Below are positions 5,815 to 54,890 of a stretch of DNA of 54,982 nucleotides, one piece after another (within the stretch, counting starts at the first letter, position 1; each line of letters opens with the position of its first letter). The notes beneath the pieces are model-generated. The model made no database searches. It was given only the letters and a program-made list of their open reading frames with translations, and was not told the DNA's origin. The stretch lies in IMG/VR virus record IMGVR_UViG_3300037510_000213, positions 1 to 54,982 of that record; one strand, written 5' to 3'. This DNA comes from a virus (lineage: Duplodnaviria; Caudoviricetes). Position numbers and translations under genes: made by a program.

Positions 5815-7884
5815 CTAAAACCGTCCTCTCGCCTTGTCACTCGTGCGGACAAGCTGGCATTTACAGTTGTATCCCTTGCATGCGAGGCTGCTGGCCCGTG
5901 GGAGGATGCCGCGCGCCTCATAGGTCTTGAAGCGGTGCACCTGCCCGTTCATGCGCAAGCAGTCTTTGCAGTGCTCAGCAAGACCATAGCGCCATTCAAA
6001 CATCGCATTGGCGGCGGCGCTGCCCAATCCCTTGTCCGTGAACTGTTGGAGCGACTTACCCCACATCATCGCGCGGTCTTGTGCGTTGGCCCCATTCACG
6101 GCCTTTGTCTTGTACACGTCATCGGCCAAACCGTTGATGTACTGGTTCTGATCCACCAACACGCCCATGTAGCGCGCGTTGTCATCAGGGTCTAAGGCGT
6201 CCACATACACCTGCCCTTGTGCCAACCCATCCTTGTAGGCTTGCAAGCCGTAATTCTTGAGGAAACTGCGCATGACGACGGTGAAGGCGCGACGATCAAG
6301 ATAGGTGTTTGGCTGACTGGCTGACACCAACAGATCGCGCACATCCTGAACGAATAATGCTTGCGTGGTGAGATAGTCCTTCTGCGCTTTGGCCGTGATG
6401 TCGTCATTCACATCATCGTTGATGTTCACCTGTGGCTTGGGGGCTTGCCCTGGGACGCCCCCAGGTGTGCCGTTTTGTGCCACAGGGGTAACAGGGGCCG
6501 CGCCGGATGTGTTGTCTTCCGCCGTAAAGGGCACATTGACCACATCATTGGCGCGCGGGGTGTTTTCAATGGCATCGCGCACAGGCTCGATCTCATTGGC
6601 CAGAAGTGTGCGCTGCTCATTGGGTGACAGGGCCGCGCCCATGCTGGCCACTGCTGCCCCCAGGATTTGCATCTTTTGCGCGTCTTCCAACGCCTCTTGA
6701 GAGTCACGATACTTAAATTCAAACGTGTACTCATCGGGGAGAAGGTCATTCAACCGACGTTCCAACTCTTGCAAGAGAAAGCCGATGGTCTTGCCGCGCG
6801 CCTTCTGTGCGAGGATCATGCTTTGACCCTGTGATCCAATCGCGCCGCCGCCACTGAGCTGCATTAGCTCCTGTCGATCCACGCCCAATGACAGCGCCAG
6901 CCGATCCACGTTAAGATCGGTGTAAACGCGATAGTCGAACTTTTCAGGCGCAGATTGGAAATCATAGTTCTGGAGTTTCACCTCATGTTCAGCGCTCATG
7001 CCAAACACGAACACGCGCTGACCAAATGTTGTCTTGCCATCGGTGTGCTGCTGCGTCTGATACTTTTGGAGAATTTCGTCCCATGCAGGCTTTAAGAGAT
7101 TGCTGACCGCTGTTACCCCAGGCGGCGGCTGATCATCCAGGCGTGATGTGATGTAGCGCTGAATCCAGATCTCTTGCTGCGCCACAGGCACGGCACGCGA
7201 CAGGGCGCTGTGGCCATAGCCAGGGCGCAATTCATCGGTGTCGAGCATGTCCACCATACGAATGATGCGCGAATGATGCATGACATGGAGGCCGCCATAG
7301 CGATCATAGTAGACCGCTGGATACCGTGGATCGCCTGTGGGGTAGCATTTGAGTGTGTCGAGATTGGCCAGTCCCACAATCGCGCCCAATGGCCGATCGT
7401 AGGCATCCCCCGGCGCAATGACCTCAAGGAACCATCCTGTGTCGTAGCGCAGATAGTTCAGGACGCCTTGCGTGATGAATGTCCCCCATCCCGCGCCAAA
7501 TTGCGCTTGACGGAACACCTCCTGGAAGTATTCGACGCCGTTGCTCTTGCGCAGCCGCCACCCCTGTGTCGCCGCCATCTGACCAAACGCGGCGTTCTCC
7601 TCATCGCTGCCCTTGATCTCCCAGGGAAGCGAGGCAATGGCTTTGGCCACGCCTGTGAACGCCCCCTGAATGAGCGAGGTTTCATCCATAAGGTAGAGAT
7701 CGCGCAGCGCGTACTCGCGTGTGCGTGTGCCCCACGCAGGCAGATAGGTGCCGCGAACGCCGCCGATACTGAACTGCGATTGGATGCCATCACGCGAGAC
7801 GGAGGGCAGGACTTGAGCCGAGTCCTGAATCGCACGATTGATTTGCGCATCGGGAGAGGTGCCAGTGGTCTGAACGGGGATCAT
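5815..7884 (-). CDS. Portal protein with C-terminal MuF-like (minor head) Cys-rich domain
   Basis: Follows TerL; AIASLPWEI, PGYGHSAL portal-like motifs; C-terminus HCKDC...LACKGYNCKCQL. Confidence 0.8.
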   Translation of the reverse strand: MIPVQTTGTSPDAQINRAIQDSAQVLPSVSRDGIQSQFSIGGVRGTYLPAWGTRTREYALRDLYLMDETSLIQGAFTGVAKAIASLPWEIKGSDEENAAFGQMAATQGWRLRKSNGVEYFQEVFRQAQFGAGWGTFITQGVLNYLRYDTGWFLEVIAPGDAYDRPLGAIVGLANLDTLKCYPTGDPRYPAVYYDRYGGLHVMHHSRIIRMVDMLDTDELRPGYGHSALSRAVPVAQQEIWIQRYITSRLDDQPPPGVTAVSNLLKPAWDEILQKYQTQQHTDGKTTFGQRVFVFGMSAEHEVKLQNYDFQSAPEKFDYRVYTDLNVDRLALSLGVDRQELMQLSGGGAIGSQGQSMILAQKARGKTIGFLLQELERRLNDLLPDEYTFEFKYRDSQEALEDAQKMQILGAAVASMGAALSPNEQRTLLANEIEPVRDAIENTPRANDVVNVPFTAEDNTSGAAPVTPVAQNGTPGGVPGQAPKPQVNINDDVNDDITAKAQKDYLTTQALFVQDVRDLLVSASQPNTYLDRRAFTVVMRSFLKNYGLQAYKDGLAQGQVYVDALDPDDNARYMGVLVDQNQYINGLADDVYKTKAVNGANAQDRAMMWGKSLQQFTDKGLGSAAANAMFEWRYGLAEHCKDCLRMNGQVHRFKTYEARGILPRASSLACKGYNCKCQLVRTSDKARGRF

Positions 7885-12836: not shown

Positions 12837-13178
12837 TCACCTCCTGGCCCGATGCCCATCCGTCCACCATAGGTTTTCTATATGCGTGTCATAAACATCG
12901 CCATTGCGATAGATGACCTTGCGTCGATGCATATTGCCCACAGGGTTGAAGGCCTCCATGACCAGCCGCCCCGCGTAAATCCACCGCCTGCGTCCCCCAT
13001 GCAAGATCAGATCGTAGAAGACGCCGCGCGGCTCCTTGTAGCCAACAAGAAAGCGGTTGCGCACAGGCGACCAGCACCGCCCCCACGTTGACACCTCATA
13101 GGGGTGGGCATACCCCTTAAGCTCAATCCATCGCTCCGGCGCATAAGTGTTGGAGTCAGGGGCAGGGAGTCCGATCAT
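12837..13178 (-). CDS. NUMOD4 / degenerate HNH domain protein
   Basis: WIELKGY..PYEVSTWGRCWS (NUMOD4); RLVMEAF...VIYRNGD...IENLWW lacks the catalytic His. Confidence 0.7.
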   Translation of the reverse strand: MIGLPAPDSNTYAPERWIELKGYAHPYEVSTWGRCWSPVRNRFLVGYKEPRGVFYDLILHGGRRRWIYAGRLVMEAFNPVGNMHRRKVIYRNGDVYDTHIENLWWTDGHRARR

Positions 13179-13407: not shown

Positions 13408-14148
13408 TCAGGCGTCCCGATTGCTCATCCGCACAATGGGCGCAGGCAGGGTGTATGTCTCGAATGCCTCCGCAGTCCACGGCATGAGCGGCTTGAACGT
13501 CTGCTCATACATGACGTTGGCGTATTGGCGAATCTCCCATTGGGCGTCCTGGGCCATACGCAGCTTGAAGAAATTCAGCGCATTGTGGGCATCCATCTTG
13601 ACCATGAACGTGTAGTAGCTGGCCCATCCTGGCAAGAACAGGCGCGCCTGTTCACGTGCCACGCCGCGATCAAGCGCCAACTGATACAGATCAAAGGAGT
13701 TCATATAGTGGCTTCTTAGCCGCACGGTCAGATCTTGCGCGTCGTCAAAGTCGATCAGCCCATCACTGCCTTGCTTGTTGCTCTGGGATTGTGCCCGCCA
13801 CTCATCAGGGACATAAAACTCATCCTCTGTAAACTCGACATAGCGCCCCGATTGCGCTGAATAGCTGGCCATGCGGTGACGGACCCACTGCCACCAGACA
13901 AGCACAGGAGCCTTGATGCGCCATTGAAAGACAACCATCTCAAACGGGCTGGTGTGGCGATCCTTGTACAGGCGCATGAGCAAGCGCTTGTCAGCGTCCT
14001 CCCCCTTGCTGGCCCCATTGAACGACACGCGGGCCGCATTCACCACCGCCATATCTGGTGTAATACCTGTGAGAGGGTGGGGCAGCAGATCGATCAGCGT
14101 CACGTGCCCCTTGTCGAGTACAGGGAACGGGGTATTAATGATGGTCAT
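13408..14148 (-). CDS. thyX: Flavin-dependent thymidylate synthase
   Basis: AARVSF, HTSPFE, RHRMASYSAQSGRY (RHRx7SxR), AREQAR, AQWEIR. Confidence 0.95.
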   Translation of the reverse strand: MTIINTPFPVLDKGHVTLIDLLPHPLTGITPDMAVVNAARVSFNGASKGEDADKRLLMRLYKDRHTSPFEMVVFQWRIKAPVLVWWQWVRHRMASYSAQSGRYVEFTEDEFYVPDEWRAQSQSNKQGSDGLIDFDDAQDLTVRLRSHYMNSFDLYQLALDRGVAREQARLFLPGWASYYTFMVKMDAHNALNFFKLRMAQDAQWEIRQYANVMYEQTFKPLMPWTAEAFETYTLPAPIVRMSNRDA

Positions 14149-14489
14149 GAAACATCCTTCCATCTTTCACCATTGGCAATTCTACGGATAGTGGGTGACG
14201 ACACCCCATAGGCGCGGGCAATGGCAGCCTTTGATTCATTTCCTCTCACAAGCCGCTGTTTGATCTCACGCACCTGCGTTGGAGCCAGTTTTTGGCGCGC
14301 GCGTGCTCTGGGAAAGGGATCTTTCAGGGGCGGTGCAAGATGGATGTGAGTGACGCCGTTGATGATCTTCCACACCGCCATATCAGTCACGCCGTAAATC
14401 TCACCAATCTGGCGGTAGTTCTCCTCAGTGGTCAACCATCGATCCCAGATAGCACACACATCCGCATCTGACAGCTTGCCATCCATCAC
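14145..14489 (-). CDS. Tandem HTH DNA-binding protein
   Basis: Two repeats KL...IGEIYGVTDMAVWKI / IARAYGVSSPTIRRI. Confidence 0.75.
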   Translation of the reverse strand: MMDGKLSDADVCAIWDRWLTTEENYRQIGEIYGVTDMAVWKIINGVTHIHLAPPLKDPFPRARARQKLAPTQVREIKQRLVRGNESKAAIARAYGVSSPTIRRIANGERWKDVS

Positions 14490-14797: not shown

Positions 14798-15069
14798 GGC
14801 GTCTCGCCTTTCTGGGGGATGTAAATGCAGGCAAAGGGAGGGGAGGGGTAGCGCTCATACCCCGTCTGATGGTAGCGGCGAATCGTCCACTGACCCTGGC
14901 ATGAGACGCATGTATAAGGCATGTCGTCAACACGATTTGACCCCCACACAATCTGACTGTCGTCATCTGCGATGTGCTGGCCTGTCTTGCCGCAATGAGG
15001 ACAAAGGGCGTGATCTCGCTTGCGGCCAAAGAACTCAAACCGCGCGTTGTCTTCGAACCCTGTGATCAT
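14794..15069 (-). CDS. Zn-ribbon protein
   Basis: CPHCG...CVSC. Confidence 0.6.
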   Translation of the reverse strand: MITGFEDNARFEFFGRKRDHALCPHCGKTGQHIADDDSQIVWGSNRVDDMPYTCVSCQGQWTIRRYHQTGYERYPSPPFACIYIPQKGETP

Positions 15070-15812
15070 GGTGTCACCTTTCCAACGCGCTCAACAGTGT
15101 TGGTGTCGGGGTTCCATGCGTGTGTGGCAGGGGTGCGGGCGTCCAGCTTTGCCAGCGTGTCGTGTGCAGCGCGGTCTATGTGTCGATGGTCGATCCCATT
15201 CGCCCAGAGAAACCCGCCAACCGTCACCAGCAGATCAATCGCTTCACGGGCGGCGTTGATTTCAGCCTCCTGCTCAATGGCCGCGCTGTGATGCGCCTCA
15301 ACACACTGACGATACTCATCAACCGCTTCGATCAGTTCGGCAAATTCTTCCTGCATCTTGGTCAGCGCACCCTGCATTGATGGCTCACCGCCGAAGCGCG
15401 TCACATAGGCTTCGGAGGTGGTCATGATCTGCGCAAACAGATCTTGCATCCCTTCTCGTTCTGCCTTCTCCTCATGCGCCTCATACCATGCGAGATCAAG
15501 CGCAAGCCGTGCAACCTTCGTCTCGATCTCTTCCGTGTGCGAGAGGTGGTACTCAGTGGCGGGGACGATGTTCATGCTGCGCATGGGATCAATCTGCAAC
15601 TCTTTGAGTGCAGCAGCCATCGCCTTCGATGCGTCTTCCCCCATCACAAGCAGTCCTGGGAGGGGAGAGGCAAACAGCGCCATGATCTTGTCAGCAAACA
15701 CCTCTTCAACGCGCCTGTCAGGGACCATCACACGGCCATCGTGCAGCTCGATCTCTTTGGCGGTGGGAATCTGACTCAACAGACTGATAAGCTTGTCGCG
15801 GGTGGTCATCAT
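15066..15812 (-). CDS. Protein with C-terminal MazG-like nucleotide pyrophosphohydrolase domain
   Basis: KMQEEFAELIEA...EAIDLLVTV (EExxE...ExxD). Confidence 0.65.
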   Translation of the reverse strand: MMTTRDKLISLLSQIPTAKEIELHDGRVMVPDRRVEEVFADKIMALFASPLPGLLVMGEDASKAMAAALKELQIDPMRSMNIVPATEYHLSHTEEIETKVARLALDLAWYEAHEEKAEREGMQDLFAQIMTTSEAYVTRFGGEPSMQGALTKMQEEFAELIEAVDEYRQCVEAHHSAAIEQEAEINAAREAIDLLVTVGGFLWANGIDHRHIDRAAHDTLAKLDARTPATHAWNPDTNTVERVGKVTP

Positions 15813-15875
15813 TTGGTTATCTCTTTCGCTTTGCGGCGGATCTGGTTGCGCTCCGTGCCAGACACGCGGCCTGAT

Positions 15876-16130
15876 TTAATCAAACTCATGGTCGGCCCAT
15901 TCATTCATCTCATCTTCTGTTTCGAATGCCCAACCGTCATATGTCCACTGCCCACACTCAACGCATGGGCTTTCGCTCAACACATGGTCGTTGACCGTGC
16001 TGCAATTGCCGCACCACTTTTCATAGCAGTGATAGCAGATGTTCGGCACATAGCTGATTGTGAATGATTTGGCAGGGCGCATCTGACGACAGCGCGGACA
16101 TTCTTGATATTCGGTGGTGATGGCGGTCAT
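15876..16130 (-). CDS. Cys-rich Zn-binding small protein
   Basis: Four CxxC pairs; AAGGAGG RBS. Confidence 0.65.
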   Translation of the reverse strand: MTAITTEYQECPRCRQMRPAKSFTISYVPNICYHCYEKWCGNCSTVNDHVLSESPCVECGQWTYDGWAFETEDEMNEWADHEFD

Positions 16131-16187: not shown

Positions 16188-16724
16188 CTATTCAGGTATT
16201 TCGTTTAGGCGCGCAAATTCACCGTAGTGTTCTAATGCGGCTTTGTTATAAGCAACTGCCGCTTGATGCTTGTCTGTAAATAGGCCTAAATACAAATTCT
16301 TGCCATTAACAACGATTTTAGCGATCCATTTGTTGGCGCATTTTCGCCACGAAACGCCCCTATAGCCTGATGTGTTTCGGGACTGAATTTTACTATTCAA
16401 TGTGTTCTGGTTATACGTTGCCAAACGAAGATTTTCGCGGCGATTGTCCAGTCCGTCGCCATTGATGTGGTCAACAATCTCCCCTTTGACAAGTTTGCGA
16501 TTAAGCACGCGCTCTAGTATCACTCTGTGCAAGAGTAAAAGAGATTGCCCTCTAGGATGAGTGGGGTCTTTGCGAAGATGGGCTGCATAAGCAGTGTATT
16601 TACCGTTTATCCGCGTAGACCATTTAAAGCGCGCCAAATCAGCGTCTTGTAAAGAAACAATAGCTGTATAGCCGCGGGTCAACGGTATTTGAATAACAGA
16701 GGGATTCGGGGTATCATTTGTCAT
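16188..16724 (-). CDS. HNH homing endonuclease with AP2 domain
   Basis: LHRVI...VDHINGDGLDNRRENLR; SGYRGVSW...YLGLF...AYNKAA..YGEFARLN; AT-rich. Confidence 0.92.
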   Translation of the reverse strand: MTNDTPNPSVIQIPLTRGYTAIVSLQDADLARFKWSTRINGKYTAYAAHLRKDPTHPRGQSLLLLHRVILERVLNRKLVKGEIVDHINGDGLDNRRENLRLATYNQNTLNSKIQSRNTSGYRGVSWRKCANKWIAKIVVNGKNLYLGLFTDKHQAAVAYNKAALEHYGEFARLNEIPE

Positions 16725-16843
16725 AGGTATCACGCCTCCGCGTGGTATCTCAAGGCACAGGATGTTTCCGCATCGCTGTGCTTTTACGTTAGCCTCATTA
16801 TACCATAGGTTCTCGATGTGTATGTTAGTCAATATCATGGTAT

Positions 16844-17251
16844 TTAACCTTGACCCATCGCTTTGGCTTTGCGCCTAATCTGATTAGCCTCGGTACCCGA
16901 CACACGCCCACTTTGAGAAGAATGCTTTTCGGGTCGTATGTACAAAATGTCATAGTCACTGTCTTGCGTCATGGCGGCGTCTTTGGCTGTGTTCGACGTG
17001 TAGCCTCGCTTGGTGTCAAAGCCTGCATTGTGGCGGGGGATGGTCAGCACGTGATACACACACACGCGCGCCGCAGGATTGAGGATGGGACTCCACTTTT
17101 TCAGCAGCGCTTGCGCCATCTCATCGGCCCCTGGTGCATCGCCCACCACGAAGTCGTGGCTGCTGGCCAAGGCTGACAGGATGTGCGGGGCATACTGCGC
17201 GTCAAATTCGTCTTTCGTCAAATCTCGATGCCCGCTAATCATGGCAATCAT
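16844..17251 (-). CDS. SLOG/YspA-like nucleotide-binding protein
   Basis: ISGHR...VVGDAPGAD...KDAAM...SGTEAN pattern. Confidence 0.7.
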   Translation of the reverse strand: MIAMISGHRDLTKDEFDAQYAPHILSALASSHDFVVGDAPGADEMAQALLKKWSPILNPAARVCVYHVLTIPRHNAGFDTKRGYTSNTAKDAAMTQDSDYDILYIRPEKHSSQSGRVSGTEANQIRRKAKAMGQG

Positions 17252-19502: not shown

Positions 19503-19646
19503 GGTGGATCTATTCTCCACTATGCCCTGCCAGTGCTTCATTCACTGACGGGGCGCTGAAATTTGGCCCTCTTTTTGTGCGATTGCACAGCTTAATTATA
19601 TCACATGTCACGTATTTTTGGGTGATTTTTAAGCACGAATCACACT

Positions 19647-22840: not shown

Positions 22841-24071
22841 TGGCAGCTCTCTTTCGCTGGCGCATTTGTTCAAGACCTTGACGCAGGATTTCGCGGCTCT
22901 CTTCGTGTTCTTCCTGTGTCATAGCAGGACGCTCAGGAAGGCCTCTAAAAGGCTCGTGGTACGCTTTTGATGTTGTTTGCGTATATTCTAGCGTGGGGGG
23001 GGTCTGTTGTGCGCCTCCTTGCCCCGCGTGGCGGTCACGGGCGGCCACATATTTGCTGATCCTCCCTTTTCCGACCAACCCCCAGATCGTGTCGATCACA
23101 TAACCCCTTGCCGCAGCCTCACGGGTCTGAAACTGGACATACCACTTAAACTCTTTGTCAGGGACGCCATTGCTCACCAGCTTTTGCGCCACCATGAGAT
23201 AATCCTTCTCATCCGCCTTGACCGCCGGAATGCCCCATGCCGTGCCCATGCTGGTGATTAACAGGTCGTTTGCCTCATCGCGGGCCTGCTGCTTGGCGGT
23301 GCGGGGCCTGACCTCCTTCGGGTCGGCTGTGTCCATTGGGGAAGGGGGGCGCGCGGCGGGCTTTTGGGGGATGGGGGTAGTCGCGTTCTTCCCATTGGTG
23401 CGTTGCTTAGAAGCAGACTGTTTGCTGTCTTGCTGTTCAGCCTCTTGCACGTGTGTATGAGTATGGGAAATGCTTGTGTCTTCCAGGCGTTCACTTGCTG
23501 TGGTGGCAAAGATCTTTCCGCCAATGTTCCACCCGCCCCCGTCTGCTGCGTCAGCAGCGGACAAAGATTCTTTTTCTTTTATGGTTTTCTCTGTAGTACT
23601 CTCTGTATATTCATGACACAGAGAATGTGTGTTGGATGGCACATTTTTTGTGTCATGGGATGATACATTTTTTGTGTCATGCATCGCACCGTTTTGCACG
23701 ATGGCGTAAAGCTTATCAAGATCGATACTGTACCACTTGCGCCGATCTCGTGGATTCTCAACGCCTTGCATGGTCATGACGACACCCGACTTTTCCAAGC
23801 CAAGCATGATTGTCTGTAATCCGCGCTCACTCAACCACGGGAAATGCTCGTTACACCATTGCTCATAGCTGTTATAGACCCACCAGCGATCATGGAGAAA
23901 ATGGCGCTCGCTCTTCTTTTTGCGATTGACGTTCATGTAGAAATAGATCTGCTGCAACACAATCGCCTCGTTGACACCAAACACCACGGCAAGGTTCGGA
24001 TAGAAAGTGATAGGCTCTTCATCAAGCAGGGAGGGGATGCGTTCGGCGTACTGTTTCTTGCTGGTAGTCAT
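22833..24071 (-). CDS. Phage replication initiator (winged-helix N-terminus, lambda-O-like organisation)
   Basis: GVNEAIVLQQIYF...WVYNSYEQW...FPWLS...KWYSID motif; internal iterons; immediately upstream of dnaB. Confidence 0.8.
   Translation of the reverse strand: MTTSKKQYAERIPSLLDEEPITFYPNLAVVFGVNEAIVLQQIYFYMNVNRKKKSERHFLHDRWWVYNSYEQWCNEHFPWLSERGLQTIMLGLEKSGVVMTMQGVENPRDRRKWYSIDLDKLYAIVQNGAMHDTKNVSSHDTKNVPSNTHSLCHEYTESTTEKTIKEKESLSAADAADGGGWNIGGKIFATTASERLEDTSISHTHTHVQEAEQQDSKQSASKQRTNGKNATTPIPQKPAARPPSPMDTADPKEVRPRTAKQQARDEANDLLITSMGTAWGIPAVKADEKDYLMVAQKLVSNGVPDKEFKWYVQFQTREAAARGYVIDTIWGLVGKGRISKYVAARDRHAGQGGAQQTPPTLEYTQTTSKAYHEPFRGLPERPAMTQEEHEESREILRQGLEQMRQRKRAANE
23612..23681. repeat. 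Iterons / probable replication origin inside the initiator gene
   Basis: ACATTTTTTGTGTCATG at 23641 and 23665 (24-bp period), inverted variant at 23612..23628; T-rich tract near 23568-23590. Confidence 0.7.
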
Positions 24072-24565
24072 GACACACCTTCCCCAAACAATGCGCGCTG
24101 TCCTGTTGCTGCAATCTTTTGCTGCCTCTTGCGCAGCCGTGTCTTCTTTGAGTTTTCTTTGTGTTCGTCTCTATCGAAGTTAAGATGACAAGCTTGACAA
24201 AGCGCCGCCAAATTCTCAGGCCGCACGTCCATCTTGTCGTGCTTGTCGCCAGGACGCCCGTCAGGGTGAGGCGTTCCAAGATGCGCCACGGTAAGAATGA
24301 CCAGTGTCGGCTTTTTGTAGTCGTACTCTTCGATAAATTCAGGGAGGGTATGAAGGTGAAATTCTTCCCCATCCATATCCCTGTACCCAGAGCACCCGAA
24401 CATATCATCCATGATCATGATCAGATAGTCAGATGTGCCACGCTTGCGGATGATCCAAGCGTGATTGGGAACACCGCACCACTCACACTTCTGGCCTGCC
24501 TGTTCACGCCGCGCAAGACTGATCTGTTTCCAGTTGGCAGGGTAACGTTTAGGATCAATGCTCAT
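24068..24565 (-). CDS. HNH-type nuclease (Zn-binding)
   Basis: YPANW..CEWCG...LTVAHL...ENLAALCQACHLNFD. Confidence 0.8.
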   Translation of the reverse strand: MSIDPKRYPANWKQISLARREQAGQKCEWCGVPNHAWIIRKRGTSDYLIMIMDDMFGCSGYRDMDGEEFHLHTLPEFIEEYDYKKPTLVILTVAHLGTPHPDGRPGDKHDKMDVRPENLAALCQACHLNFDRDEHKENSKKTRLRKRQQKIAATGQRALFGEGVS

Positions 24566-28280: not shown

Positions 28281-28820
28281 TTAGAAGGGGATGATATTGA
28301 CGTTGACGCGAAACAGCACCTCTTTCATGGCTGCGTCGATCTGTTCTGGCGTTGATGTGTCATCATCCCGCACGGCCTCATACTGCTTGTAGGCTGTCTC
28401 AATCTCATCAGGCAGGCGATACGACGTTTGGAGATGCGTCACATGCACAACAGGCGTCGACACAGGCGCGACCTTGAGCCATCCCCCCATACTGCGCGGG
28501 TCAATGGTCACACGCCCCTTCTGCTCAAGGCGCTTTGCGATAGGGAAAGATGGATTCTCGAAAAACATATAGAGTCCGTCCTCGCCCGCCTCTGAGATCA
28601 TGCTCATCACATCATCTTCACTCTGAGGCGCAGGCGCGGGCGCGTCGCTTGTGTAATTCATATCGATGTACGCCCATTCGTCGTGAGACAGATCAATCGA
28701 TTCTTCGCCCGTCGGATAGACACGCACATAATCATTGAACATCTTCGCCGTGACGATGTGATCAGGGTTGATCCACGTCTGGCGTCCTGAAAGATCCTTC
28801 ACCTTAATCAGTTTGCTCAT
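28281..28820 (-). CDS. Hypothetical protein (FlbD-like N-terminus)
   Basis: LIKVKDLSGRQTWINPDHI pattern. Confidence 0.6.
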   Translation of the reverse strand: MSKLIKVKDLSGRQTWINPDHIVTAKMFNDYVRVYPTGEESIDLSHDEWAYIDMNYTSDAPAPAPQSEDDVMSMISEAGEDGLYMFFENPSFPIAKRLEQKGRVTIDPRSMGGWLKVAPVSTPVVHVTHLQTSYRLPDEIETAYKQYEAVRDDDTSTPEQIDAAMKEVLFRVNVNIIPF

Positions 28821-29287
28821 TTGCTGCCCTTCTCTTTCTTCTTTTTGGCCTTCTTGTACCGTGCGATCAAGTCGCTTAAGGCGTTGCGGAAAATGTCCGC
28901 TTCTGTCGCCCCTGTCTCATCCCGTATCTCATCAATGTCTTTGCGCATCTCTGGAGACACCCGCGCCATCTTCTGAAAGGGGAACTCAGCATCCCGCCCA
29001 TGCCCGCCGCTTGCCTTGTTTGTCATCGCTGTGTTGATGGCGCGATAGTGAGCAATCCAGCGCTTTTCTGCGGCTTCCCATGTGTCGGGTGTGCATTCTT
29101 CGAGGATTGTCATCTGAGGTCGTTTACCTTGTGCCTTCAACTGTGCAATCCACTCGAATTTGCCCTTGTTGCCTTTGGCAGATGAGTTGAGATGCCCCTC
29201 CATTCTGCGTTTCGGATCGTTGGTTCTCCCCACGTACCGCACTTCATTGGTGATGGGATCAATCAGCGCGTAGATATAGATGATCAT
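28817..29287 (-). CDS. GIY-YIG endonuclease fused to a ribbon-helix-helix domain
   Basis: YIYALIDP..VRYVGRT..R..H...E..WI...TN; C-terminal ARVSPEMRKDIDE..ATEADIFRNAL. Confidence 0.85.
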   Translation of the reverse strand: MIIYIYALIDPITNEVRYVGRTNDPKRRMEGHLNSSAKGNKGKFEWIAQLKAQGKRPQMTILEECTPDTWEAAEKRWIAHYRAINTAMTNKASGGHGRDAEFPFQKMARVSPEMRKDIDEIRDETGATEADIFRNALSDLIARYKKAKKKKEKGSK

Positions 29288-31166: not shown

Positions 31167-31988
31167 ATGGATTTTTACTACACACTCTCCGCAGATCGGG
31201 TAAAGCCCCAATGGATGCCAGATGACTTGTGTTATCTGTTGCCAGCATCCTCATGGGCGCGGCTCGGTTTGCGTGCGCCAAAATTGCCTGATGGCATTCG
31301 CACGGCGGCGGATTGTGGCGGGTTCGTGGCAACAAAGGTTTGGGGTGATTATCGCTATACACCTCAGCAGTATGTGAATTGGCTGTTTACCTTTACGCCC
31401 GAATGGGCCGCCACGATGGATTACTGCTGCGAAGATGAGATCACAGGTGGCACACCTGGGATTGTCCGTTTTCGTCAGCAGCGCACAACTGAGATGGCTT
31501 ATCACTTCTGGCAAAACTACCGCTTTGCGCCCTGGGCATGGGTGCCCACTGTGCAGGGATGGAATGTTGAAGACTATAGAGAGCACGCCGCCGATCTGCG
31601 CCCGCTCATTTTGGAAATGAAGGCGTTCTATGAGGCGATGGGCAATCCTCACTTCCGTGTTGGTATCGGGACGCTGTGCAATCGCGCCGATAACGCCATG
31701 ATCCTCTCTGTGATTCAAGCCGTGCGTGATGTGTTGCCAGAGTGCAAGTTCCATCTGTGGGGCGTGAAACTGAAGGCGCTTCAGTCACGTGTTGCGTTGC
31801 CGAATGTCGTGAGTGTTGATAGCGCGGCGTGGGCATTTTCAACGATGGCAAGCCGCCACAGAAAGCGAGCCGCGCAGATCGCTTTGGGCATGACACAGCG
31901 CGAATACGATCACAAGATTGCTCTGCCTGCCTATCGCGCCAAAGTTGACGCGGCGCTCGGAGAAGTCAAACAGCAGCATTTGCTTTAA
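31167..31988 (+). CDS. dpdA: DpdA-like (TGT-fold) deazapurine DNA transglycosylase
   Basis: DCGGF, MDYCCE, PTVQGW, VGIGTLC, HLWGVK, SVDSAAW motifs of TGT/DpdA-like phage proteins. Confidence 0.75.
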   Translation: MDFYYTLSADRVKPQWMPDDLCYLLPASSWARLGLRAPKLPDGIRTAADCGGFVATKVWGDYRYTPQQYVNWLFTFTPEWAATMDYCCEDEITGGTPGIVRFRQQRTTEMAYHFWQNYRFAPWAWVPTVQGWNVEDYREHAADLRPLILEMKAFYEAMGNPHFRVGIGTLCNRADNAMILSVIQAVRDVLPECKFHLWGVKLKALQSRVALPNVVSVDSAAWAFSTMASRHRKRAAQIALGMTQREYDHKIALPAYRAKVDAALGEVKQQHLL

Positions 31989-32061
31989 ACGCACTCAGCA
32001 CCTTACGAGCCAGCGGCGGATAAGGTGCATTAGCTCAACTCAGCACGAAAGGAGGTATCAA

Positions 32062-32715
32062 ATGCGCGTTTTAGTGGCTTGCGAGTTCTCCGGAACAGTG
32101 CGTGATGCCTTTACACAGCTTGGGCATGACGCTTGGTCGTGTGATCTCCTGCCAACTGAATCACCCGGTAATCACATTCAGGGCAATGTGCTGGATATTC
32201 TGGATGCTGGTTGGGATCTTATGGTTGCGCACCCTCCCTGTACGTATCTGGCAAAAAGCGGTGTGCAACATCTATGGCGCGGCCGGAAGCGTGAAAACGG
32301 ACGGAATGAGGAACGCTGGATTGCTCTTGAGGAGAGTACATCTCTCTTCCTGGCATTGCTGAACTGCAAAACGATCCCTCGGATTGCGGTTGAAAACCCT
32401 GTGCCTCATTCCTACGCAGGATTACCGCCATACTCGCAAATCGTACAGCCTTATCACTTTGGTGAGGCTCAACAGAAGATGACTTGCCTCTGGCTGAGAA
32501 ACCTCCCTCTGCTTTTGCCGACAAACGTTGTCGGTAAAGGGGAACGGTATTTCACCAAAGAAGGCAGAAGCAACGGCTCGAAGTGGTATCAACTACCACC
32601 AGGTAAAGACCGCTGGAAACATCGCAGCAAGACGTTTGAAGGCATTGCCCAGGCGATGGCTACACAGTGGGGCAGCAAAGAGATACGACCAGCGCAACAG
32701 CGGATGTTCGCGTAA
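32062..32715 (+). CDS. Phage C5-cytosine DNA methyltransferase-like protein
   Basis: MRVLVACEFSG, AHPPCTYL (PC), ENPV, QPYHFG, RSKTFEGIAQAMATQWG. Confidence 0.85.
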   Translation: MRVLVACEFSGTVRDAFTQLGHDAWSCDLLPTESPGNHIQGNVLDILDAGWDLMVAHPPCTYLAKSGVQHLWRGRKRENGRNEERWIALEESTSLFLALLNCKTIPRIAVENPVPHSYAGLPPYSQIVQPYHFGEAQQKMTCLWLRNLPLLLPTNVVGKGERYFTKEGRSNGSKWYQLPPGKDRWKHRSKTFEGIAQAMATQWGSKEIRPAQQRMFA

Positions 32716-32749
32716 GCAGTCCGTGGGTAAAGGATTTTTCAACAACTCA

Positions 32750-32776
32750 GTAGGGGCGCAGGATGCTGCGCCCCTA
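32750..32776 (+). repeat. GTAG-led GC-rich hairpin (REP-like) before RBS
   Basis: G-TAGGGGCGCAG-GATG-CTGCGCCCCTA, perfect 11-bp stem. Confidence 0.6.
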
Positions 32777-32789
32777 GAAAGGATGCAAT

Positions 32790-33191
32790 ATGCCGCGCTT
32801 CTGTCGACCACACTTCAAGCGATTTTATCAGGCAAAGATCGCCGTTCCTGTGTCGTGGGGGCCGATGCTTGATAAATACTTCGATTGTGAAGACCCTGTC
32901 GAGCTGGGTAGCATGGTTGAGGAACTCAGTTCGCTTGGTATCTGCTATCTCGATATTGCAAACATGGTGGCTGTCCTCAATCGCTTCAAAATGAGCGAGG
33001 TCATCAAGCACGCAGGGCCATGTGTCGAAATTGATGTGACGTGGTTGCGTATCGCTCGCTTCTATGGCGATGATGCAATTGATGATGATGAGGCACTCGG
33101 CCTTATCTCAGTGATCGCTGAGGCATGGCGCGATAGAGGCAAACAGGTGAAACGGCGGTTCAGAGTACTTGATCGCGCCGTGCTTGGATAA
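32790..33191 (+). CDS. Hypothetical protein
   Basis: AAGGA RBS; 133 aa. Confidence 0.65.
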   Translation: MPRFCRPHFKRFYQAKIAVPVSWGPMLDKYFDCEDPVELGSMVEELSSLGICYLDIANMVAVLNRFKMSEVIKHAGPCVEIDVTWLRIARFYGDDAIDDDEALGLISVIAEAWRDRGKQVKRRFRVLDRAVLG

Positions 33192-33210
33192 GCGTCATTA
33201 GGTACACACA

Positions 33211-33236
33211 GTAGGGGCATGGTACGCCATGCCCCT
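33211..33236 (+). repeat. GTAG-led GC-rich hairpin (REP-like) before RBS
   Basis: GT-AGGGGCATGG-TACG-CCATGCCCCT, perfect 10-bp stem. Confidence 0.6.
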
Positions 33237-33254
33237 TAGACAAGGATTTAAGCG

Positions 33255-33476
33255 ATGGAAATTGAAGGCTGGAACGGCTGGACACACAACAAAAAAGGCC
33301 AGCGCATTTGCCCGCTGTGTGGCAAAGCAACTATGGGACGCGCTCGTAAGTCAAACAGCGAGACTGATTCGGGTGAACGCCTGTACAGCGTCGGGTGTAA
33401 GTCCTGCAAGAAAACGGTCTATGAAACTCGTCATAGCGATCTGTCGGTCAAACATCTCTATCACTGGAAAGGGTGA
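33255..33476 (+). CDS. Zn-ribbon protein (paralog of 30886..31122)
   Basis: CPLCG...CKSC...YETR. Confidence 0.65.
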   Translation: MEIEGWNGWTHNKKGQRICPLCGKATMGRARKSNSETDSGERLYSVGCKSCKKTVYETRHSDLSVKHLYHWKG

Positions 33477-33733
33477 TCACGATGCAAGGTAAACGCCACG
33501 ATCTGCCAGAAGACGAATATAACCTTGAGCCAGGGGAATACGGCAAAAGTCCTGAAGGATGGTTCTGTCGTCCGCCTGGGGGAAAGCATGGTGTGGGTGG
33601 CATCAACAAACATACCATCACTGAGCATGAGGATGGGACGATCACCGTCTCACCATCGATTCTCTTCTATGACAATGATGGCAATCCAGGCTGGCACGGC
33701 TATCTTGAGCACGGTGTCTGGAAAGAGGTGTGA
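33473..33733 (+). CDS. DUF6527-like small protein
   Basis: TITVSPSIL...WHGYLEHGVW motif. Confidence 0.6.
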   Translation: MITMQGKRHDLPEDEYNLEPGEYGKSPEGWFCRPPGGKHGVGGINKHTITEHEDGTITVSPSILFYDNDGNPGWHGYLEHGVWKEV

Positions 33734-34536
33734 GCATGACTGATATTTCATCACCACCCCTTCGATACACAGGTGGCAAGTGGAACATGGCCCCAAAGAT
33801 TATCACGCTGTTTCCTGAGCATACGTGCTATGTGGAGACACACGCGGGTGGCGCTGGTGTGTTCTTTCGCAAGGTGCCGTCTACAGCTGAGGTGTTGAAC
33901 GATCTAAATCAAGAGATTGTGACGTTCTTCGATGTGCTGCGTGAACGGCGCGCCGACCTGATTGAAGCGATTGAATGCACGCCTTACAGTCGCGTGGAAT
34001 TGCAGCGGGCCACAGAGCCAGCATCCGACCCATTGGAACGGGCGCGCCGTTTCTACATCCGTTCGCTGCAATCCTTCTCCAATGGCGAGGGTGAACGGTC
34101 TCTCAATTGGCGCTTTCAGATCAACAAGGATTCACTCGTCAATCGCTGGAATAAGACCAGTCATCTGTGGGCCTGCGCACAGCGTTTGAAGGCGGCTCAG
34201 CTCGAGTGTGATACAGCTGCCAATGTGATCGAGCGCTTCGATGACCCCAACACGTTGTTCTATGTCGATCCGCCCTACGTGCACGACACGCGCGGCGAAT
34301 CACGTATCTATCGCTTTGAGATGACTGACGATGACCACAGAGCGTTGGCTGATCAGTTGAAGCGTGTACAGGGCGCTGTGATCCTCAGTGGCTATGACAG
34401 CGATCTCTATCGCGAGTTGTACCCTGACTGGCGCATGGTGTCATTCGAGATGGATACAGTGCAGAAGACGAAGCGGGCTGAATGCCTCTGGCTCTCGCCA
34501 CGCACAAAGGTTCGTGAGCAAAGAGCACTGTTTTAG
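33730..34536 (+). CDS. N6-adenine DNA methyltransferase (Dam/D12 class)
   Basis: PLRYTGGKW, YVETHAGG, LNDLN, FYVDPPY, LSGY, ECLW. Confidence 0.92.
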   Translation: MSMTDISSPPLRYTGGKWNMAPKIITLFPEHTCYVETHAGGAGVFFRKVPSTAEVLNDLNQEIVTFFDVLRERRADLIEAIECTPYSRVELQRATEPASDPLERARRFYIRSLQSFSNGEGERSLNWRFQINKDSLVNRWNKTSHLWACAQRLKAAQLECDTAANVIERFDDPNTLFYVDPPYVHDTRGESRIYRFEMTDDDHRALADQLKRVQGAVILSGYDSDLYRELYPDWRMVSFEMDTVQKTKRAECLWLSPRTKVREQRALF

Positions 34537-34604: not shown

Positions 34605-35084
34605 ATGATGACTCAAGATGAAATAGAACATCTCATGACGCTGGTAAACACTCACGGATATGAGACATGGGGGAAACAGGAGGGCGCGCCGAATGCTGAT
34701 CCGTATGCGGCATGGGTGAAGGTCAGAGATTATGTCAATGACCTGCTCGATAAAAAGAATGCTGAGATTGAGCGCTCGAAAACCCCACAGCCAACACCTG
34801 CAACCATCACAGACTATATCAACGACGACGTGCTTCTTCACCCTCTCACGGAGGAATTTTGTCAGGCGATGGATGAAGCGTGGGCTAATGGGGTTGGTGG
34901 TGGACTTTTGGAGGTCATTTACCGCTGGCGAAATGGAAAGCTCATCATCCCGCAAGTTGCACGCTTGATTGATGAATCGGACTGGTCGCTGCCTATTCGA
35001 CTGGCAAACGCACACACGGCGCTTATGTTGAATTGGGATGGTGCAAATTACGAAGGGCGGCACGCAAAGAAGCCCATCGAATAG
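34605..35084 (+). CDS. Hypothetical protein
   Basis: AAAGAGG RBS; ORF of about 160 aa. Confidence 0.6.
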   Translation: MMTQDEIEHLMTLVNTHGYETWGKQEGAPNADPYAAWVKVRDYVNDLLDKKNAEIERSKTPQPTPATITDYINDDVLLHPLTEEFCQAMDEAWANGVGGGLLEVIYRWRNGKLIIPQVARLIDESDWSLPIRLANAHTALMLNWDGANYEGRHAKKPIE

Positions 35085-35301
35085 CTGGCCGTACAAAATT
35101 GACGATATAGACGGTCAGTCTCTAAAACTTATCACATCTATTTTGAGGGTCAAAGTTTAGGCGTTTTTGGCTCTCAAAATAGGGGCGTCAAGCGAAATCA
35201 TGTTCTAAGATTAAGCACGAAAATATGATATAATGGGGTAACGTAAGTGCCACGGCAGCGCGTCAACGCTCCGTGGCTGATCGCACACAGGAGTGCAATC
35301 C

Positions 35302-35919
35302 ATGACCAACGATGCTATCGTTTCCCCTTCGATTCCACAAGAGCAAACCGAGATTTGGATGGATATTCCCTCCTACATCGGTATCTATCAGGCCAGCAAC
35401 TTAGGGCGATTTCGTTCTGTCACATGCCGAATGCGCACAAGAATGGGCGATATTTTGCATGGGTCACGGCTTCCAGTTGGCTATCGATATATTCGCCTGA
35501 CAGATGCGAATGGTATTAAGACGCGCTATTTGTCACATCGGGTTATTCTATCCACATTCAGCCCTATTGATGGCTGGGAGTCTTTGGATGTCAATCATAA
35601 GAACGGTGACAAAGGGGATAACCGTCTTGAGAATCTTGAATGGATGACCCATAAGGACAATATCATTCACGCCCGTCAAGTCCTCGACTCATGGAAGGCG
35701 TCACGCGAACGTCGCCCCAAGAAGATCAAAGTCTTGAAAGGTACCGCCAGAGGCGAAAGGATCGTTTCATCAAAGTTGAGCGCAGAAGACGTGAGGCAGA
35801 TCAGAGAATTTGGCAAACGCGGCAAAATGACGCAAAGCGAAATCGCCGCACTGTTTGGAGTTTCAAGCACTACCGTCTGCTTGATCATTAACCGTAAGCA
35901 ATGGGCGCACATCGAATAG
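35302..35919 (+). CDS. NUMOD4-HNH homing endonuclease with C-terminal HTH
   Basis: EIWMDIPSY.GIYQASNLGRFRS; HRVI...VNHKNGDKGDNRLENLEW; IAALFGVS. Confidence 0.92.
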   Translation: MTNDAIVSPSIPQEQTEIWMDIPSYIGIYQASNLGRFRSVTCRMRTRMGDILHGSRLPVGYRYIRLTDANGIKTRYLSHRVILSTFSPIDGWESLDVNHKNGDKGDNRLENLEWMTHKDNIIHARQVLDSWKASRERRPKKIKVLKGTARGERIVSSKLSAEDVRQIREFGKRGKMTQSEIAALFGVSSTTVCLIINRKQWAHIE

Positions 35920-36079
35920 TACTTATCACAATAAACAATCGGCTCTCGAAATAGGGCCGATTGTGAAAAAATATCTCAGCCTATAACAGCCAGTATCGGC
36001 CCTTAGAAGCAAAAACGCCCAAAATCACCCGCCGTCACAAGTATTGTGACTTATCACGAATAAGAAAGGGGTTGCACAG

Positions 36080-38541: not shown

Positions 38542-38623
38542 GGACTTGTAGCTCAGCGGCTAGAGTAACGGGCTGACATGACTGTAGGTTCCGCATGCAT
38601 GGGTTCGAGTCCCATCAAGTTCC
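38542..38623 (+). tRNA. tRNA-like gene (Val-GAC-like) with elongated anticodon arm; possibly pseudo-tRNA
   Basis: Acceptor GGACTTG/CAAGTTC, D-arm TA-GCTC-AGCGGCTA-GAGT, T-arm ATGGG-TTCGAGT-CCCAT; anticodon region about 10 nt too long; no encoded CCA. Confidence 0.7.
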
Positions 38624-51142: not shown

Positions 51143-51359
51143 TTGTCTTTTTTGCTATTCCGATGAGGTATGTATTGTCGCTGTAGGCATACCAAATCGT
51201 ACTGTATCGACATTCAGAGCACTCCCATCGAACCATCTTATATTTTTCATCAACGATTCGCGTGTGATCGCATGACCCGCATTTACAAACCTCGGTAGGC
51301 TTATAAAGAGATATTGTATCCAATAGAGAAAACGGGCCGTTATATTCAATGTCGATCAC
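51129..51359 (-). CDS. Small Zn-ribbon protein (AT-rich)
   Basis: CKCGSC...CSEC. Confidence 0.55.
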   Translation of the reverse strand: MIDIEYNGPFSLLDTISLYKPTEVCKCGSCDHTRIVDEKYKMVRWECSECRYSTIWYAYSDNTYLIGIAKKTNDTP

Positions 51360-53796: not shown

Positions 53797-54129
53797 TTAC
53801 GGTCTTTTCTCAAGTCTTTGGAAAATCGGGCTTAACAACGGGTACCAAACCCTAAGCTCTCTCTGTATATCCTCTGTAAACCAATCGATGCCCCACACTT
53901 CAACTCTTGATAAAATCGTGTGTACAGGCCCAATATAGTCTAGTGGCCGTGTATTGCTGGATACCTCAGAGGTCAAGTGGGGGGAAGATGTGTCAAACCA
54001 TGTTGCACATCCCAATCTGACCAATTCATTCATTTGAGAGGCTGTAAAGGCCGATTCTCCATACACCCCCTCACAATACACCTTCCCATAGGTTACCACC
54101 CCGTGCGGAGGGATAAGGTAGATGTTCAT
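53797..54129 (-). CDS. Hypothetical protein (AT-rich)
   Basis: TAATG coupling to the upstream GT. Confidence 0.55.
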   Translation of the reverse strand: MNIYLIPPHGVVTYGKVYCEGVYGESAFTASQMNELVRLGCATWFDTSSPHLTSEVSSNTRPLDYIGPVHTILSRVEVWGIDWFTEDIQRELRVWYPLLSPIFQRLEKRP

Positions 54130-54890
54130 TACTCAATCACATTCAACTGTGCATACGGATGGTCAAGCATAAAATCAGGCGGTGTCACAGGGTCGGGATG
54201 CGCCCATGAGTCCATGCCAATCGGGTGACAGTCGGTCTGTCGATTGGCCGCGTACACCTCTTCAAACCAATTCGGATTGGTGAACTCCCCGCGATGGCCG
54301 TGAATGCTCATCTTGTAGCGCACCACTGGCACGCGCTCTGCATAGCCGTAATGGTGGATGCGCATGGCATTGTCAGCGCTGTGATAGGTTGTCTCTTGCT
54401 TGGGGAGATGCCGAATATACACGCGCCCTGGTGCAGCGGGGTCATGGGTGAAGGCCCGATGAAATGAGCGCCAATAGTGCCGCAAGAGGACACGTGTCTC
54501 ATAGCAATTCTGCTCAACGGCATGGGCCACAACCGCCTCAAGCAGGCCAGGTGCCCAACACTCATCGGCATCCAGCTTCACAATCACATCGGCGTCAGTG
54601 TACTCCCACCCCGCGTTGAATTGATGCCCCTCATTCTCCCATCCCGTGTGATCGTACCAGCGCACCTTGTCGAGGTCGGCCAGAATACCCGACTCAAACA
54701 CCGATGCTTTCAAATCCGCCTCACTGTCAGGGCATGGGATCGACGTGTAAGGCGTGCCGTGCGAGGGGTGCGGGCTGTACATGATCAGCATGTCATCTGC
54801 GACGGACTCAAGACTGCGCAGCGCATACGGGAGATAGGCCGCGCCGTAGTGCAGAGGGGTGATGGTGGCAACTTTCAGGCCATTGATCAT
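54129..54890 (-). CDS. GT-A fold (GT2-like) glycosyltransferase
   Basis: YLPYALRSL..VAD, VKLDADE (DxD), IHHYGYA. Confidence 0.8.
   Translation of the reverse strand: MINGLKVATITPLHYGAAYLPYALRSLESVADDMLIMYSPHPSHGTPYTSIPCPDSEADLKASVFESGILADLDKVRWYDHTGWENEGHQFNAGWEYTDADVIVKLDADECWAPGLLEAVVAHAVEQNCYETRVLLRHYWRSFHRAFTHDPAAPGRVYIRHLPKQETTYHSADNAMRIHHYGYAERVPVVRYKMSIHGHRGEFTNPNWFEEVYAANRQTDCHPIGMDSWAHPDPVTPPDFMLDHPYAQLNVIE

Follow-up and report, generated by a model that had tools for sequence, protein, structure and literature searches.

What does a leader of about 100 bases do, and on which strand does it act, when it stands in similar form ahead of two endonuclease genes with different accessory domains? 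The question is raised by the window studied here, i.e. all 54,982 bp of the IMG/VR record IMGVR_UViG_3300037510_000213 (Caudoviricetes, Duplodnaviria), in which a preliminary description had recognized the leader and had taken it for a portable promoter joined to a cis-acting RNA, controlling two unrelated HNH endonuclease genes. Our analysis retains the portable cassette and would place its RNA on the other strand: the cassette (~100 bases) probably makes a cis-antisense RNA of ~65 nucleotides (nt), similar to the sar RNA of phage P22, that would mask the ribosome binding site of the gene behind it. At the level of sequence, this reading is carried by two copies with a covarying hairpin, by a wider family in other phages, by an asymmetry between the strands in how well they fold, by an antisense -10 box in the first codons, and by a layout like that of P22 sar and its target gene ant.

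The two copies of the cassette in the window

Both copies lie where the preliminary description had placed them, at 16807..16713 (minus strand) and 35224..35313 (plus strand), and they align over 95 columns with a mean identity of 78%. Their similarity runs from TATG(G/A)TATAATG to codon 4, and the sequence that flanks them is unrelated. Each copy is composed of an extended -10 promoter, the box TAACGTAA, a bulged hairpin (hairpin 1), a hairpin around the Shine-Dalgarno sequence (SD; hairpin 2), and then the start ATG-ACn-AAy-GAT of the nuclease gene, at the following positions.

16797..16805, minus strand: sense promoter of the minus copy, extended -10 TGGTATAAT, read from the sequence
16784..16791, minus strand: TAACGTAA box of the minus copy; on the plus strand TTTT then ACGTTA, the tail after the hairpin
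16754..16782, no strand assigned: hairpin 1 of the minus copy, 6-7 bp, one bulged base, 4 bp, six-base loop
16725..16750, no strand assigned: hairpin 2 around the SD of the minus copy, a fold of both strands
16188..16724, minus strand: HNH_3 + AP2-like endonuclease gene P0001, start ATG ACA AAT GAT
35226..35234, plus strand: sense promoter of the plus copy, extended -10 TGATATAAT, read from the sequence
35239..35246, plus strand: TAACGTAA box of the plus copy, read from the sequence
35249..35277, no strand assigned: hairpin 1 of the plus copy, 7 bp, bulge, 4 bp, loop CGTCAA
35279..35300, no strand assigned: hairpin 2 of the plus copy, on the minus strand 8 bp with one G-U pair and a UCCUGU loop
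35302..35919, plus strand: NUMOD4 + HNH_3 (+ weak HTH) endonuclease gene P0002, start ATG ACC AAC GAT

Hairpin 1, which spans alignment columns 26-54, carries a bulged C and a CGnnAA loop in both copies (the bulged base of the minus copy being C on the gene strand and G on the plus strand), and the compensatory changes reported for it are borne out. Among its 11 pairs, five are invariant, five are changed on both sides and one is unpaired in one copy, with 0 of the 10 core pairs broken; 95.5% of the cells are paired, vs 23-48% when the 3' partners are slid. This signal, which comes from n=2 sequences, was reached by 13 of 500 shuffles. A covariance model of the two copies, run unfiltered on the window, returned these two only (a circular result for them), with the next match at E 6.5, and the element is not in the window's other three endonuclease genes (12837-13178, 24068-24565 and 28817-29287). 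A third perfect extended -10 box TGATATAAT in the window, at 19570-19603 (minus strand), is directly followed by a small hairpin (TGTGC-AATC-GCACA), and the covariance model search of the window did not identify it as a member of the cassette family.

The second hairpin enclosing the SD is likewise present in both copies, but in different alignment registers, so that homology between the two SD hairpins is not shown. That of the minus copy has, on the plus strand, a stem of 10 bp, two of them G-U, closed by a loop CUCC (anti-SD), and on the gene strand 5 bp and interrupted pairs only, with GGAG in the loop. The sense promoter of the minus copy is not listed by a simple promoter scan, since it is without a -35 match.

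A wider family and the strand on which it folds

A scan of IMG/VR with a pattern of the 15 letters common to the two window hairpins returned 55 loci, and all four free pairs were complementary in eight of them, where ~1 would be expected at (6/16)^4. Most of these eight, together with three loci with 3/4 pairs, are intergenic and lie between a TGnTATAAT box and an SD-ATG 25-31 nt downstream; that relatives with the same context were retrieved by the hairpin letters alone is independent support for the view that the two-copy signal did not arise by chance. With 11 of the pattern-found loci as its basis, a covariance model (R2) detected further, more diverged copies within the same viral records, resulting in 23 matches in 11 records, with at most four per genome (G000, 2; G001, 1; G002, 1; G003, 2; G004, 4; G005, 2; G006, 1; G007, 4; G008, 3; G009, 1; G010, 2). 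A wider IMG/VR pattern gave at least 120 loci, with ~17 among the matches listed having the family context, and contributed the new copies L250, L294, L311 and L327. In total, the family comprises 29 matches, 25 of them distinct, from the 11 viral records and two further contigs. Across the 25 distinct sequences, 8 of the 10 hairpin pairs are changed on both sides (27 cells), 88.7% of the cells are paired vs 22-45% when slid, and 0 of 500 shuffles were as good. The covariance model search that the preliminary description had proposed has in this way yielded both the further homologs and the covariation.

The genes behind the copies (in a survey that left out L294, L344 and L345) encode HNH endonucleases (the window's two, L093, L094 and L097), AntA/ANT antirepressors (L090 and two in L343), KilA-N proteins (L096, L098 and L350), as well as eight further proteins with no Pfam family match. 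The presence of the cassette ahead of non-homologous genes in 10 further viral records supports its portability.

The TAACGTAA box is common to the two window copies only, and is not in the other 23 family members. Promoter and TAACGTAA together were matched at 2 loci in IMG/VR, both without the hairpin and judged to be chance, and the box with the 5' half of the hairpin at 0 loci; in the metagenome collection, TGnTATAATGnGG(0-2)TAACGTAA gave 12 promoter-like loci, none with the hairpin. Nine pattern loci without the family context (L220, L228, L238, L240, L259, L270, L284, L308 and L329) had no R2 match at E 0.01. Among the candidates rejected were a CACCGC...CGGTG pattern in genome contigs (at least 120 matches), for which 11 among the matches listed had 3/3 free pairs, all high-GC coding and without the context, and L051/L067, where four pairs fit and R2 gives 27 bits, but the hairpin abuts the start of an open reading frame (ORF) with no promoter; the latter were kept out of later alignments. 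In record G007, at L351 793-872 (= L061), the family hairpin follows a terminator-like GC hairpin and T-run, with no SD-ATG at the usual distance, and this copy may be decayed or an orphan.

The mismatches in the stem distinguish the two strands. When read on the gene strand, the stem cells of alignment A6 (20 sequences) comprise 170 Watson-Crick pairs, 0 G-U, 12 A-C and 10 other, some of the latter being alignment artefacts at columns 10/44, and the 12 A-C cells are G-U pairs on the opposite strand. Folds of the two strands were compared for the segment that begins 10 nt ahead of the hairpin and ends at the start codon. These comparisons, as well as the promoter counts given below, are based on 22 of the 25 copies, leaving out one cut by a contig end and two without a start codon in place. 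The minimum free energy (MFE) is lower on the antisense strand in 22/22 copies (mean difference -7.1 kcal/mol). Since an A/C-rich leader alone would give such an energy bias, z-scores against dinucleotide shuffles were used as a composition control, and these are lower on the antisense strand in 21 of the 22 copies (mean -3.90 vs -2.33 on the sense strand). In the window, the antisense folds have z -5.68 (minus copy) and -4.77 (plus copy), and the sense leaders -2.30 and -2.09. The RNAs predicted from these folds, with their ends inferred, are as follows.

16724..16791, plus strand: predicted antisense RNA of the minus copy, ~65 nt, fold -32.5 kcal/mol, z -5.68
35239..35305, minus strand: predicted antisense RNA of the plus copy, ~65 nt, fold -33.7 kcal/mol, z -4.77

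An A-rich run 5' of hairpin 1 becomes, on the opposite strand, a U-rich tail after the hairpin, namely UUUUACGUU in the minus copy and ACUUACGUUA in the plus copy, and across the family these tails range from UUUUUUAUAU down to weak. On this reading, the TAACGTAA box of the window copies would be the tail of the antisense terminator.

A promoter that could start such an RNA is found at the other end of the predicted transcript. In 19 of the 22 copies, TAnnnT stands on the antisense strand 3-7 nt ahead of the start codon's complement, with a TGn extension in 16, and the three other copies have TGnCAGnAT. This -10 box falls within codons 3-5, at +7 or +8, and so keeps no fixed codon phase, and the residues encoded there vary from copy to copy. 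As controls, the box was looked for at the starts of 82 ORFs of the window and was present at four (one with TG), and the chance of the box at any position is 2.6%, or 0.25% with TG. The promoter of the minus copy is listed independently by the promoter scan, and the hexamers of the plus copy are the complements of 35335-35340 (TTGTGG) and 35312-35317 (TAGCAT).

16689..16717, plus strand: predicted antisense promoter of the minus copy, TTGAAT-17 nt-TATCAT, in codons 3-12, scoring 9 of 12 in the promoter scan
35312..35340, minus strand: predicted antisense promoter of the plus copy, TTGTGG-17 nt-TAGCAT, scoring 7 of 12

An antisense -10 box in the first codons offers an explanation for the conserved 'MTND' with which both nucleases begin, as the letters encoding it would, on this reading, be those of the antisense promoter. 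Taken together, the mismatches, fold energies, z-scores, antisense extended -10 and A-run point to an RNA read from the opposite strand. The selected fold thus appears to lie on the strand opposite the gene, and the cis-acting leader RNA of the preliminary description was probably assigned to the wrong one. We read hairpin 1 as the terminator of the antisense RNA and, unavoidably, as a hairpin at the 5' end of the mRNA.

The alternative that survives best, though we consider it unlikely, is that the leader acts in cis as a structured 5' region of the gene strand, with no antisense RNA, in which the SD would be presented by hairpin 2, and hairpin 1 would either stabilize the mRNA or serve as the binding site of a regulator. 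In its favor, 18 of the 22 copies have the sense extended -10 upstream, so that the hairpin would be at or near the mRNA 5' end, the gene-strand loops are C-GNRA-A, the distance from hairpin to ATG is near constant (25-31 nt), and the covariation is compatible with either strand. Such a leader, however, would have to carry 12 A-C mismatches and 0 G-U pairs, with the weaker fold in 22/22 copies and the weaker z in 21/22, and would leave unexplained both the A-run before the hairpin and the antisense TGnTAnnnT of codons 3-5, with its independence of codon phase.

The proposed mechanism and related phage systems

In the antisense mechanism that we favor, each copy would be a control cassette with two promoters, moving together with the gene that it heads. 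An extended -10 promoter of the sigma-70 type would start the nuclease mRNA a few bases before hairpin 1, and a promoter on the opposite strand, inside codons 3-12, would start a small RNA at about the start codon. The ~65-nt antisense RNA would run back through the SD and end at hairpin 1, which would serve as a bulged terminator with a U-rich tail. It would be fully complementary to the 5' untranslated region (UTR) of the mRNA, and pairing would hide the ribosome binding site and block the 30S subunit; this pairing may begin between complementary loops, and the resulting duplex may be exposed to RNase III. The facing promoters, ~90 bp apart, may in addition interfere with each other, and the outcome would be a low synthesis of a potentially harmful DNA-binding or DNA-cutting protein. 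We infer the transcription of the antisense RNA, its ends and its repressive effect from the sequence features given above and from their likeness to known systems.

The closest likeness in layout is to P22 sar, a 68/69-nt RNA that is described as pairing with ant mRNA and blocking its translation (PMC12197685 and PMC2629481, as far as the parts considered here go). In the P22 record NC_002371, sar (15021-15090) lies opposite ant, with its terminator at 15021-15058 and its promoter at 15097-15125 inside ant, whose ATG is at 15091; the complement of the sar -10 is at +7..+12 and is followed by GCA. As predicted for the cassette, the sar promoter sits within the opening codons of its target gene, the complement of its -10 is followed by nCA (TGn), the RNA start adjoins the start codon, and an RNA of similar length (68-70 nt) is composed of a 5' stem-loop and a 3' terminator with the mRNA-strand apex G-CGNNAA-C and with G-U pairs only on the RNA's own strand. 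The apex of the sar terminator is G-CGGTAA-C on the mRNA strand, and the A-C mismatches there are G-U in sar. Judged by sequence, the copies of the cassette resemble the sar arrangement in two features, a predicted antisense promoter within the opening codons and a putative transcript start beside the start codon. When folded, sar, P22 oop and lambda oop each take the two-stem-loop shape of the predicted cassette RNAs, and three family members (L090 and two in L343) have AntA/ANT targets. The differences are that sar targets ant, whereas the window targets are HNH endonucleases; that the sense promoter of the cassette faces the antisense promoter across ~90 bp, while P22 ant is read from Pant upstream of arc; that the cassette hairpin has a conserved single-base bulge; and that the family includes HNH endonuclease and KilA-N targets, with several copies per genome.

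The oop RNAs of lambda and P22 are the second point of comparison. The known target of oop is cII. Control of cII expression by oop is also listed in a table of PMC12197685. Oop, like the predicted cassette RNA, is a short antisense RNA with an extended -10 promoter overlapping the start of the downstream gene, an A-run before the hairpin and a mRNA-strand apex of CGGCAA (lambda) or CGGGAA (P22). Across the whole P22 genome, R2 scores highest at the annotated terminator/promoter region of oop (22.3 bits, E 0.0016), and in a 1.2-kb piece of lambda R2 matches oop with 15.6 bits (E 0.0035); both scores are weak and come partly from generic A-run, SD and ATG columns. The sar locus of P22 was not matched by R2 at E up to 10, and an Rfam scan of P22 found sar and reported nothing at oop. 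Unlike the cassette, oop lies between cII/c1 and a replication gene, overlapping the gene upstream at its 3' end, and lambda oop starts 11 nt upstream of the O start codon, beyond AGGAG, so that the SD is not covered. The predicted cassette RNAs cover the SD and end at least 50 nt short of the upstream ORF, and the genes upstream of the window cassettes are unnamed ORFs, i.e. the cassettes are not placed between cII-like and replication genes. The terminators of sar (L340, P22, 15021-15058), P22 oop (32277-32319) and lambda oop (L341, 597-630) have in common the apex G-CGNNAA-C on the mRNA strand, which is UUNNCG in the RNA, and P22 sar and P22 oop also share the upper stem ACTG/CAGT.

Two further groups of systems resemble the cassette in part. 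In IS10 RNA-OUT/RNA-IN and SymE/SymR, facing promoters produce a small stable antisense RNA over the ribosome binding site of a harmful gene. The cassette differs from IS10 and from type I toxin-antitoxin systems in having no transposase or small toxin, and no sequence relation is shown; the sole sub-threshold Rfam match, with 19.7 bits and E 0.14 (gathering 61), was to SymR (RF01809) and lay in the plus copy, on its antisense strand. The homing endonuclease genes of T-even phages and Aeh1 (I-TevI, segB, mobE) resemble the cassette in having an upstream hairpin and their own promoter, thought to limit translation (PMC2988022, in part). According to the same part of that source, hairpins of T-even endonuclease genes bury the SD and late promoters bypass them, as the late promoter TATAAATA inside the hairpin frees the SD, and no antisense RNA is invoked there (PMC2988022). 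Similar conserved 5' UTR hairpins are described, in the part of PMC2677866 considered here, at metagenomic free-standing endonuclease loci. The combination of a paired SD and TATAAATA that marks the T-even arrangement was not found in the window copies, which have GGAG or ACAGGA in the loop of hairpin 2, promoters of the sigma-70 type (TGnTATAAT) and the better fold on the opposite strand.

Several observations weigh against an antisense RNA. In the plus copy, the predicted antisense promoter is weak (7 of 12) and goes unlisted in the promoter scan, and the U-tract is poor (5 U in 10); poor U-tracts also occur in the high-GC members L094 and L097. A simple terminator scan lists neither window hairpin, possibly owing to the bulge. 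The conservation of the sense extended -10 (18/22) means that the 5' hairpin of the mRNA may matter too, and most gene-strand loops are C-GNRA-A, a stable loop type that suits a function on the sense strand. Model R2, and the alignments fitted to it, favor the modelled structure. About 14 of the 25 copies come from one contig group rich in GCGATCGC, which we take to be cyanophage-like, so that the counts overstate independent events, and the number of lineages is nearer six. Finally, the Rfam model of sar (RF00262, gathering score 43 bits), which gave 97.8 bits on P22 as a positive control, did not reach gathering anywhere in the window; nor did it match the 251 nt around either copy at E up to 10, or any of eight related loci, the Ant-heading L090 included, at E up to 1.

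As no Rfam family matches either window copy at any threshold tried, the motif is indeed uncatalogued, as the preliminary description had suggested; the kind of system, however, is already known from P22 sar and lambda/P22 oop, and on the antisense reading the cassette would be a new family or variant rather than an undescribed class. In the open literature (subscription journals being mostly outside the coverage), we found no description of an antisense RNA with an HNH or homing endonuclease, or of sar with KilA-N. We also raise, tentatively and as something we rather doubt, a broader view in which sar, oop and the cassette family would have diverged from each other within a single old, mobile superfamily of antisense-RNA 'governor' cassettes of phages, hopping with selfish or toxic genes between phages of unrelated hosts. 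Its shared traits would be extended -10 promoters that face each other, a stem-loop carrying an anti-SD and a UUNNCG apex on the terminator, and its range would extend over the soil phage, cyanophage-like contigs and enterobacterial lambdoids, with HNH homing endonucleases, Ant and KilA-N.

The mobile units, the source phage and the significance of the cassette

The two nucleases had been called unrelated, and this holds for their accessory domains, P0001 having AP2 (31.4 bits, below the Pfam cut-off of 33.3) and P0002 having NUMOD4 with a sub-threshold HTH, but not for the HNH_3 core, which both possess (39% identity over 49 amino acids (aa)). Each HNH unit is bracketed by repeats.

15819..15871, no strand assigned: diverged direct repeat of 16857-16909, minus unit, 74% over 53 nt
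35907..35959, no strand assigned: downstream repeats of resident sequence 35072-35187, plus unit, GCnCATCGAATAG, GGCTCTCnAAATAGGGnCG, ACTTATCACA

The repeats of the minus unit are 1038 bp apart, and the insert between them comprises the cassette, the HNH gene and an 84-aa ORF; the repeat at 15819..15871 encodes a second, untranslated C-terminus of the upstream gene (SGRVSGTERNQIRRKAKEITK and a stop), and this stop overlaps the ATG of the next gene. Around the plus unit, the repeats consist of pieces of the sequence after the upstream gene's stop codon, the upstream copy of ACTTATCACA having been identified by eye. Because both units are flanked by direct repeats of resident sequence, promoter and leader are part of the mobile unit and not of resident operons. 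These repeats, together with the non-homologous genes headed elsewhere, sustain the earlier proposal of a portable cassette.

Within the minus insert, the 84-aa ORF (15876-16130, minus strand) is cysteine-rich and has a strong SD, and Pfam and PHROGs scans gave no family match for it. A candidate terminator after the minus HNH gene (hairpin and T-run) was rejected, as its fold is weak (z -1.53). Just 3' of the plus HNH gene, a strong 12-bp hairpin (35935-35964, plus strand; z -4.71) is followed by an A-run, not a U-run, and a 17-nt inverted repeat (35138-35182, plus strand) lies upstream of the plus cassette; both are inside the repeated flank of the plus unit.

A second alternative, which we regard as improbable, is a promoter-proximal element at the head of operons, in which sigma-70 would pause at TAACGT, a -10-like sequence at about +1, and the nascent hairpin would give an antitermination signal (nut/put/qut-like). 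Elements of this kind are used at lambda PR' and HK022 put. TAACGT has A2 and T6 of the -10 hexamer and lies 4-5 nt after the true -10, and a hairpin with T-run may follow the minus HNH gene. That hairpin folds weakly, though (z -1.53), the TAACGTAA box is confined to the window copies and so is lacking in 23 family members, Pfam/PHROGs scans of 59 and 75 ORFs gave no N- or Q-like protein, and the antisense promoter and strand asymmetry are left unexplained. Least probable of all is a DNA-level site, be it an inverted repeat to which a repressor binds or a signal by which the mobile nuclease unit recombines or homes, for although the element is located at the edge of inserted units bracketed by direct repeats, and T4 intron endonucleases are described as repressing their own promoters via operator sites (PMC2988022, in part), the DNA-binding domains of the two nucleases differ, the family also heads non-nuclease genes, the bulge, non-palindromic loop and one-strand G-U bias are signatures of RNA, and an A-C mismatch, which exists on neither strand of duplex DNA, would be meaningless there.

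The record itself looks complete, with direct terminal repeats at its ends. The window sequence is present in soil-metagenome DNA sequencing runs (three runs listed, and none of RNA), and in the contigs of those three runs nothing was found on either leader. A DNA-level search of GenBank phages with the window gave no match, there is no close relative of the phage among GenBank phages or IMG/VR, and its TerL relatives are all below 30% identity. P0001 has distant relatives only, and no relatives were found in IMG/VR for P0002 or for the 689-aa protein of 5815-7884, which we take to be the portal by its gene position and which has no Pfam/PHROGs family match.

Four other features of the window were observed in passing. 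Its sole tRNA gene (38542-38623, plus strand; 82 nt, Rfam 49 bits) is given by ARAGORN as tRNA-??? with a four-base anticodon (gaca), indicating an odd anticodon loop or an insertion. The gene thyX (13408-14163) is flanked by a short HNH-like ORF (12837-13178, minus strand), which corresponds to the N-terminal part of PHROG 59/959, and by an HTH ORF (14145-14489, minus strand), which matches the C-terminal part of that PHROG, and the two may be remnants of endonuclease genes. At 31167-34536 (plus strand), a DpdA-like gene (PF23859) adjoins two DNA methyltransferase genes, which looks like a DNA-modification block on a short rightward arm whose end is the plus HNH unit. Three glycosyltransferase family 2 genes (1683-2765, 51356-53059 and 54129-54890, minus strand) are found among the structural genes.

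The control that keeps free-standing homing endonuclease genes harmless to the phage that carries them is known for T-even phages only, as far as the part of PMC2988022 considered here extends. If the antisense RNA is made, the 40-year-old P22 sar paradigm would extend from one immunity region to a portable multi-copy module, controlling nuclease, antirepressor and KilA-N genes in phages of very different hosts. The antisense reading accounts for an otherwise puzzling conservation of nucleotides in the first codons of unrelated genes, and would add an RNA family that is missing from Rfam, with 25 sequences and clear covariation as a seed. Should the superfamily view be true, such genes would in general need antisense restraint in order to settle in a phage genome.

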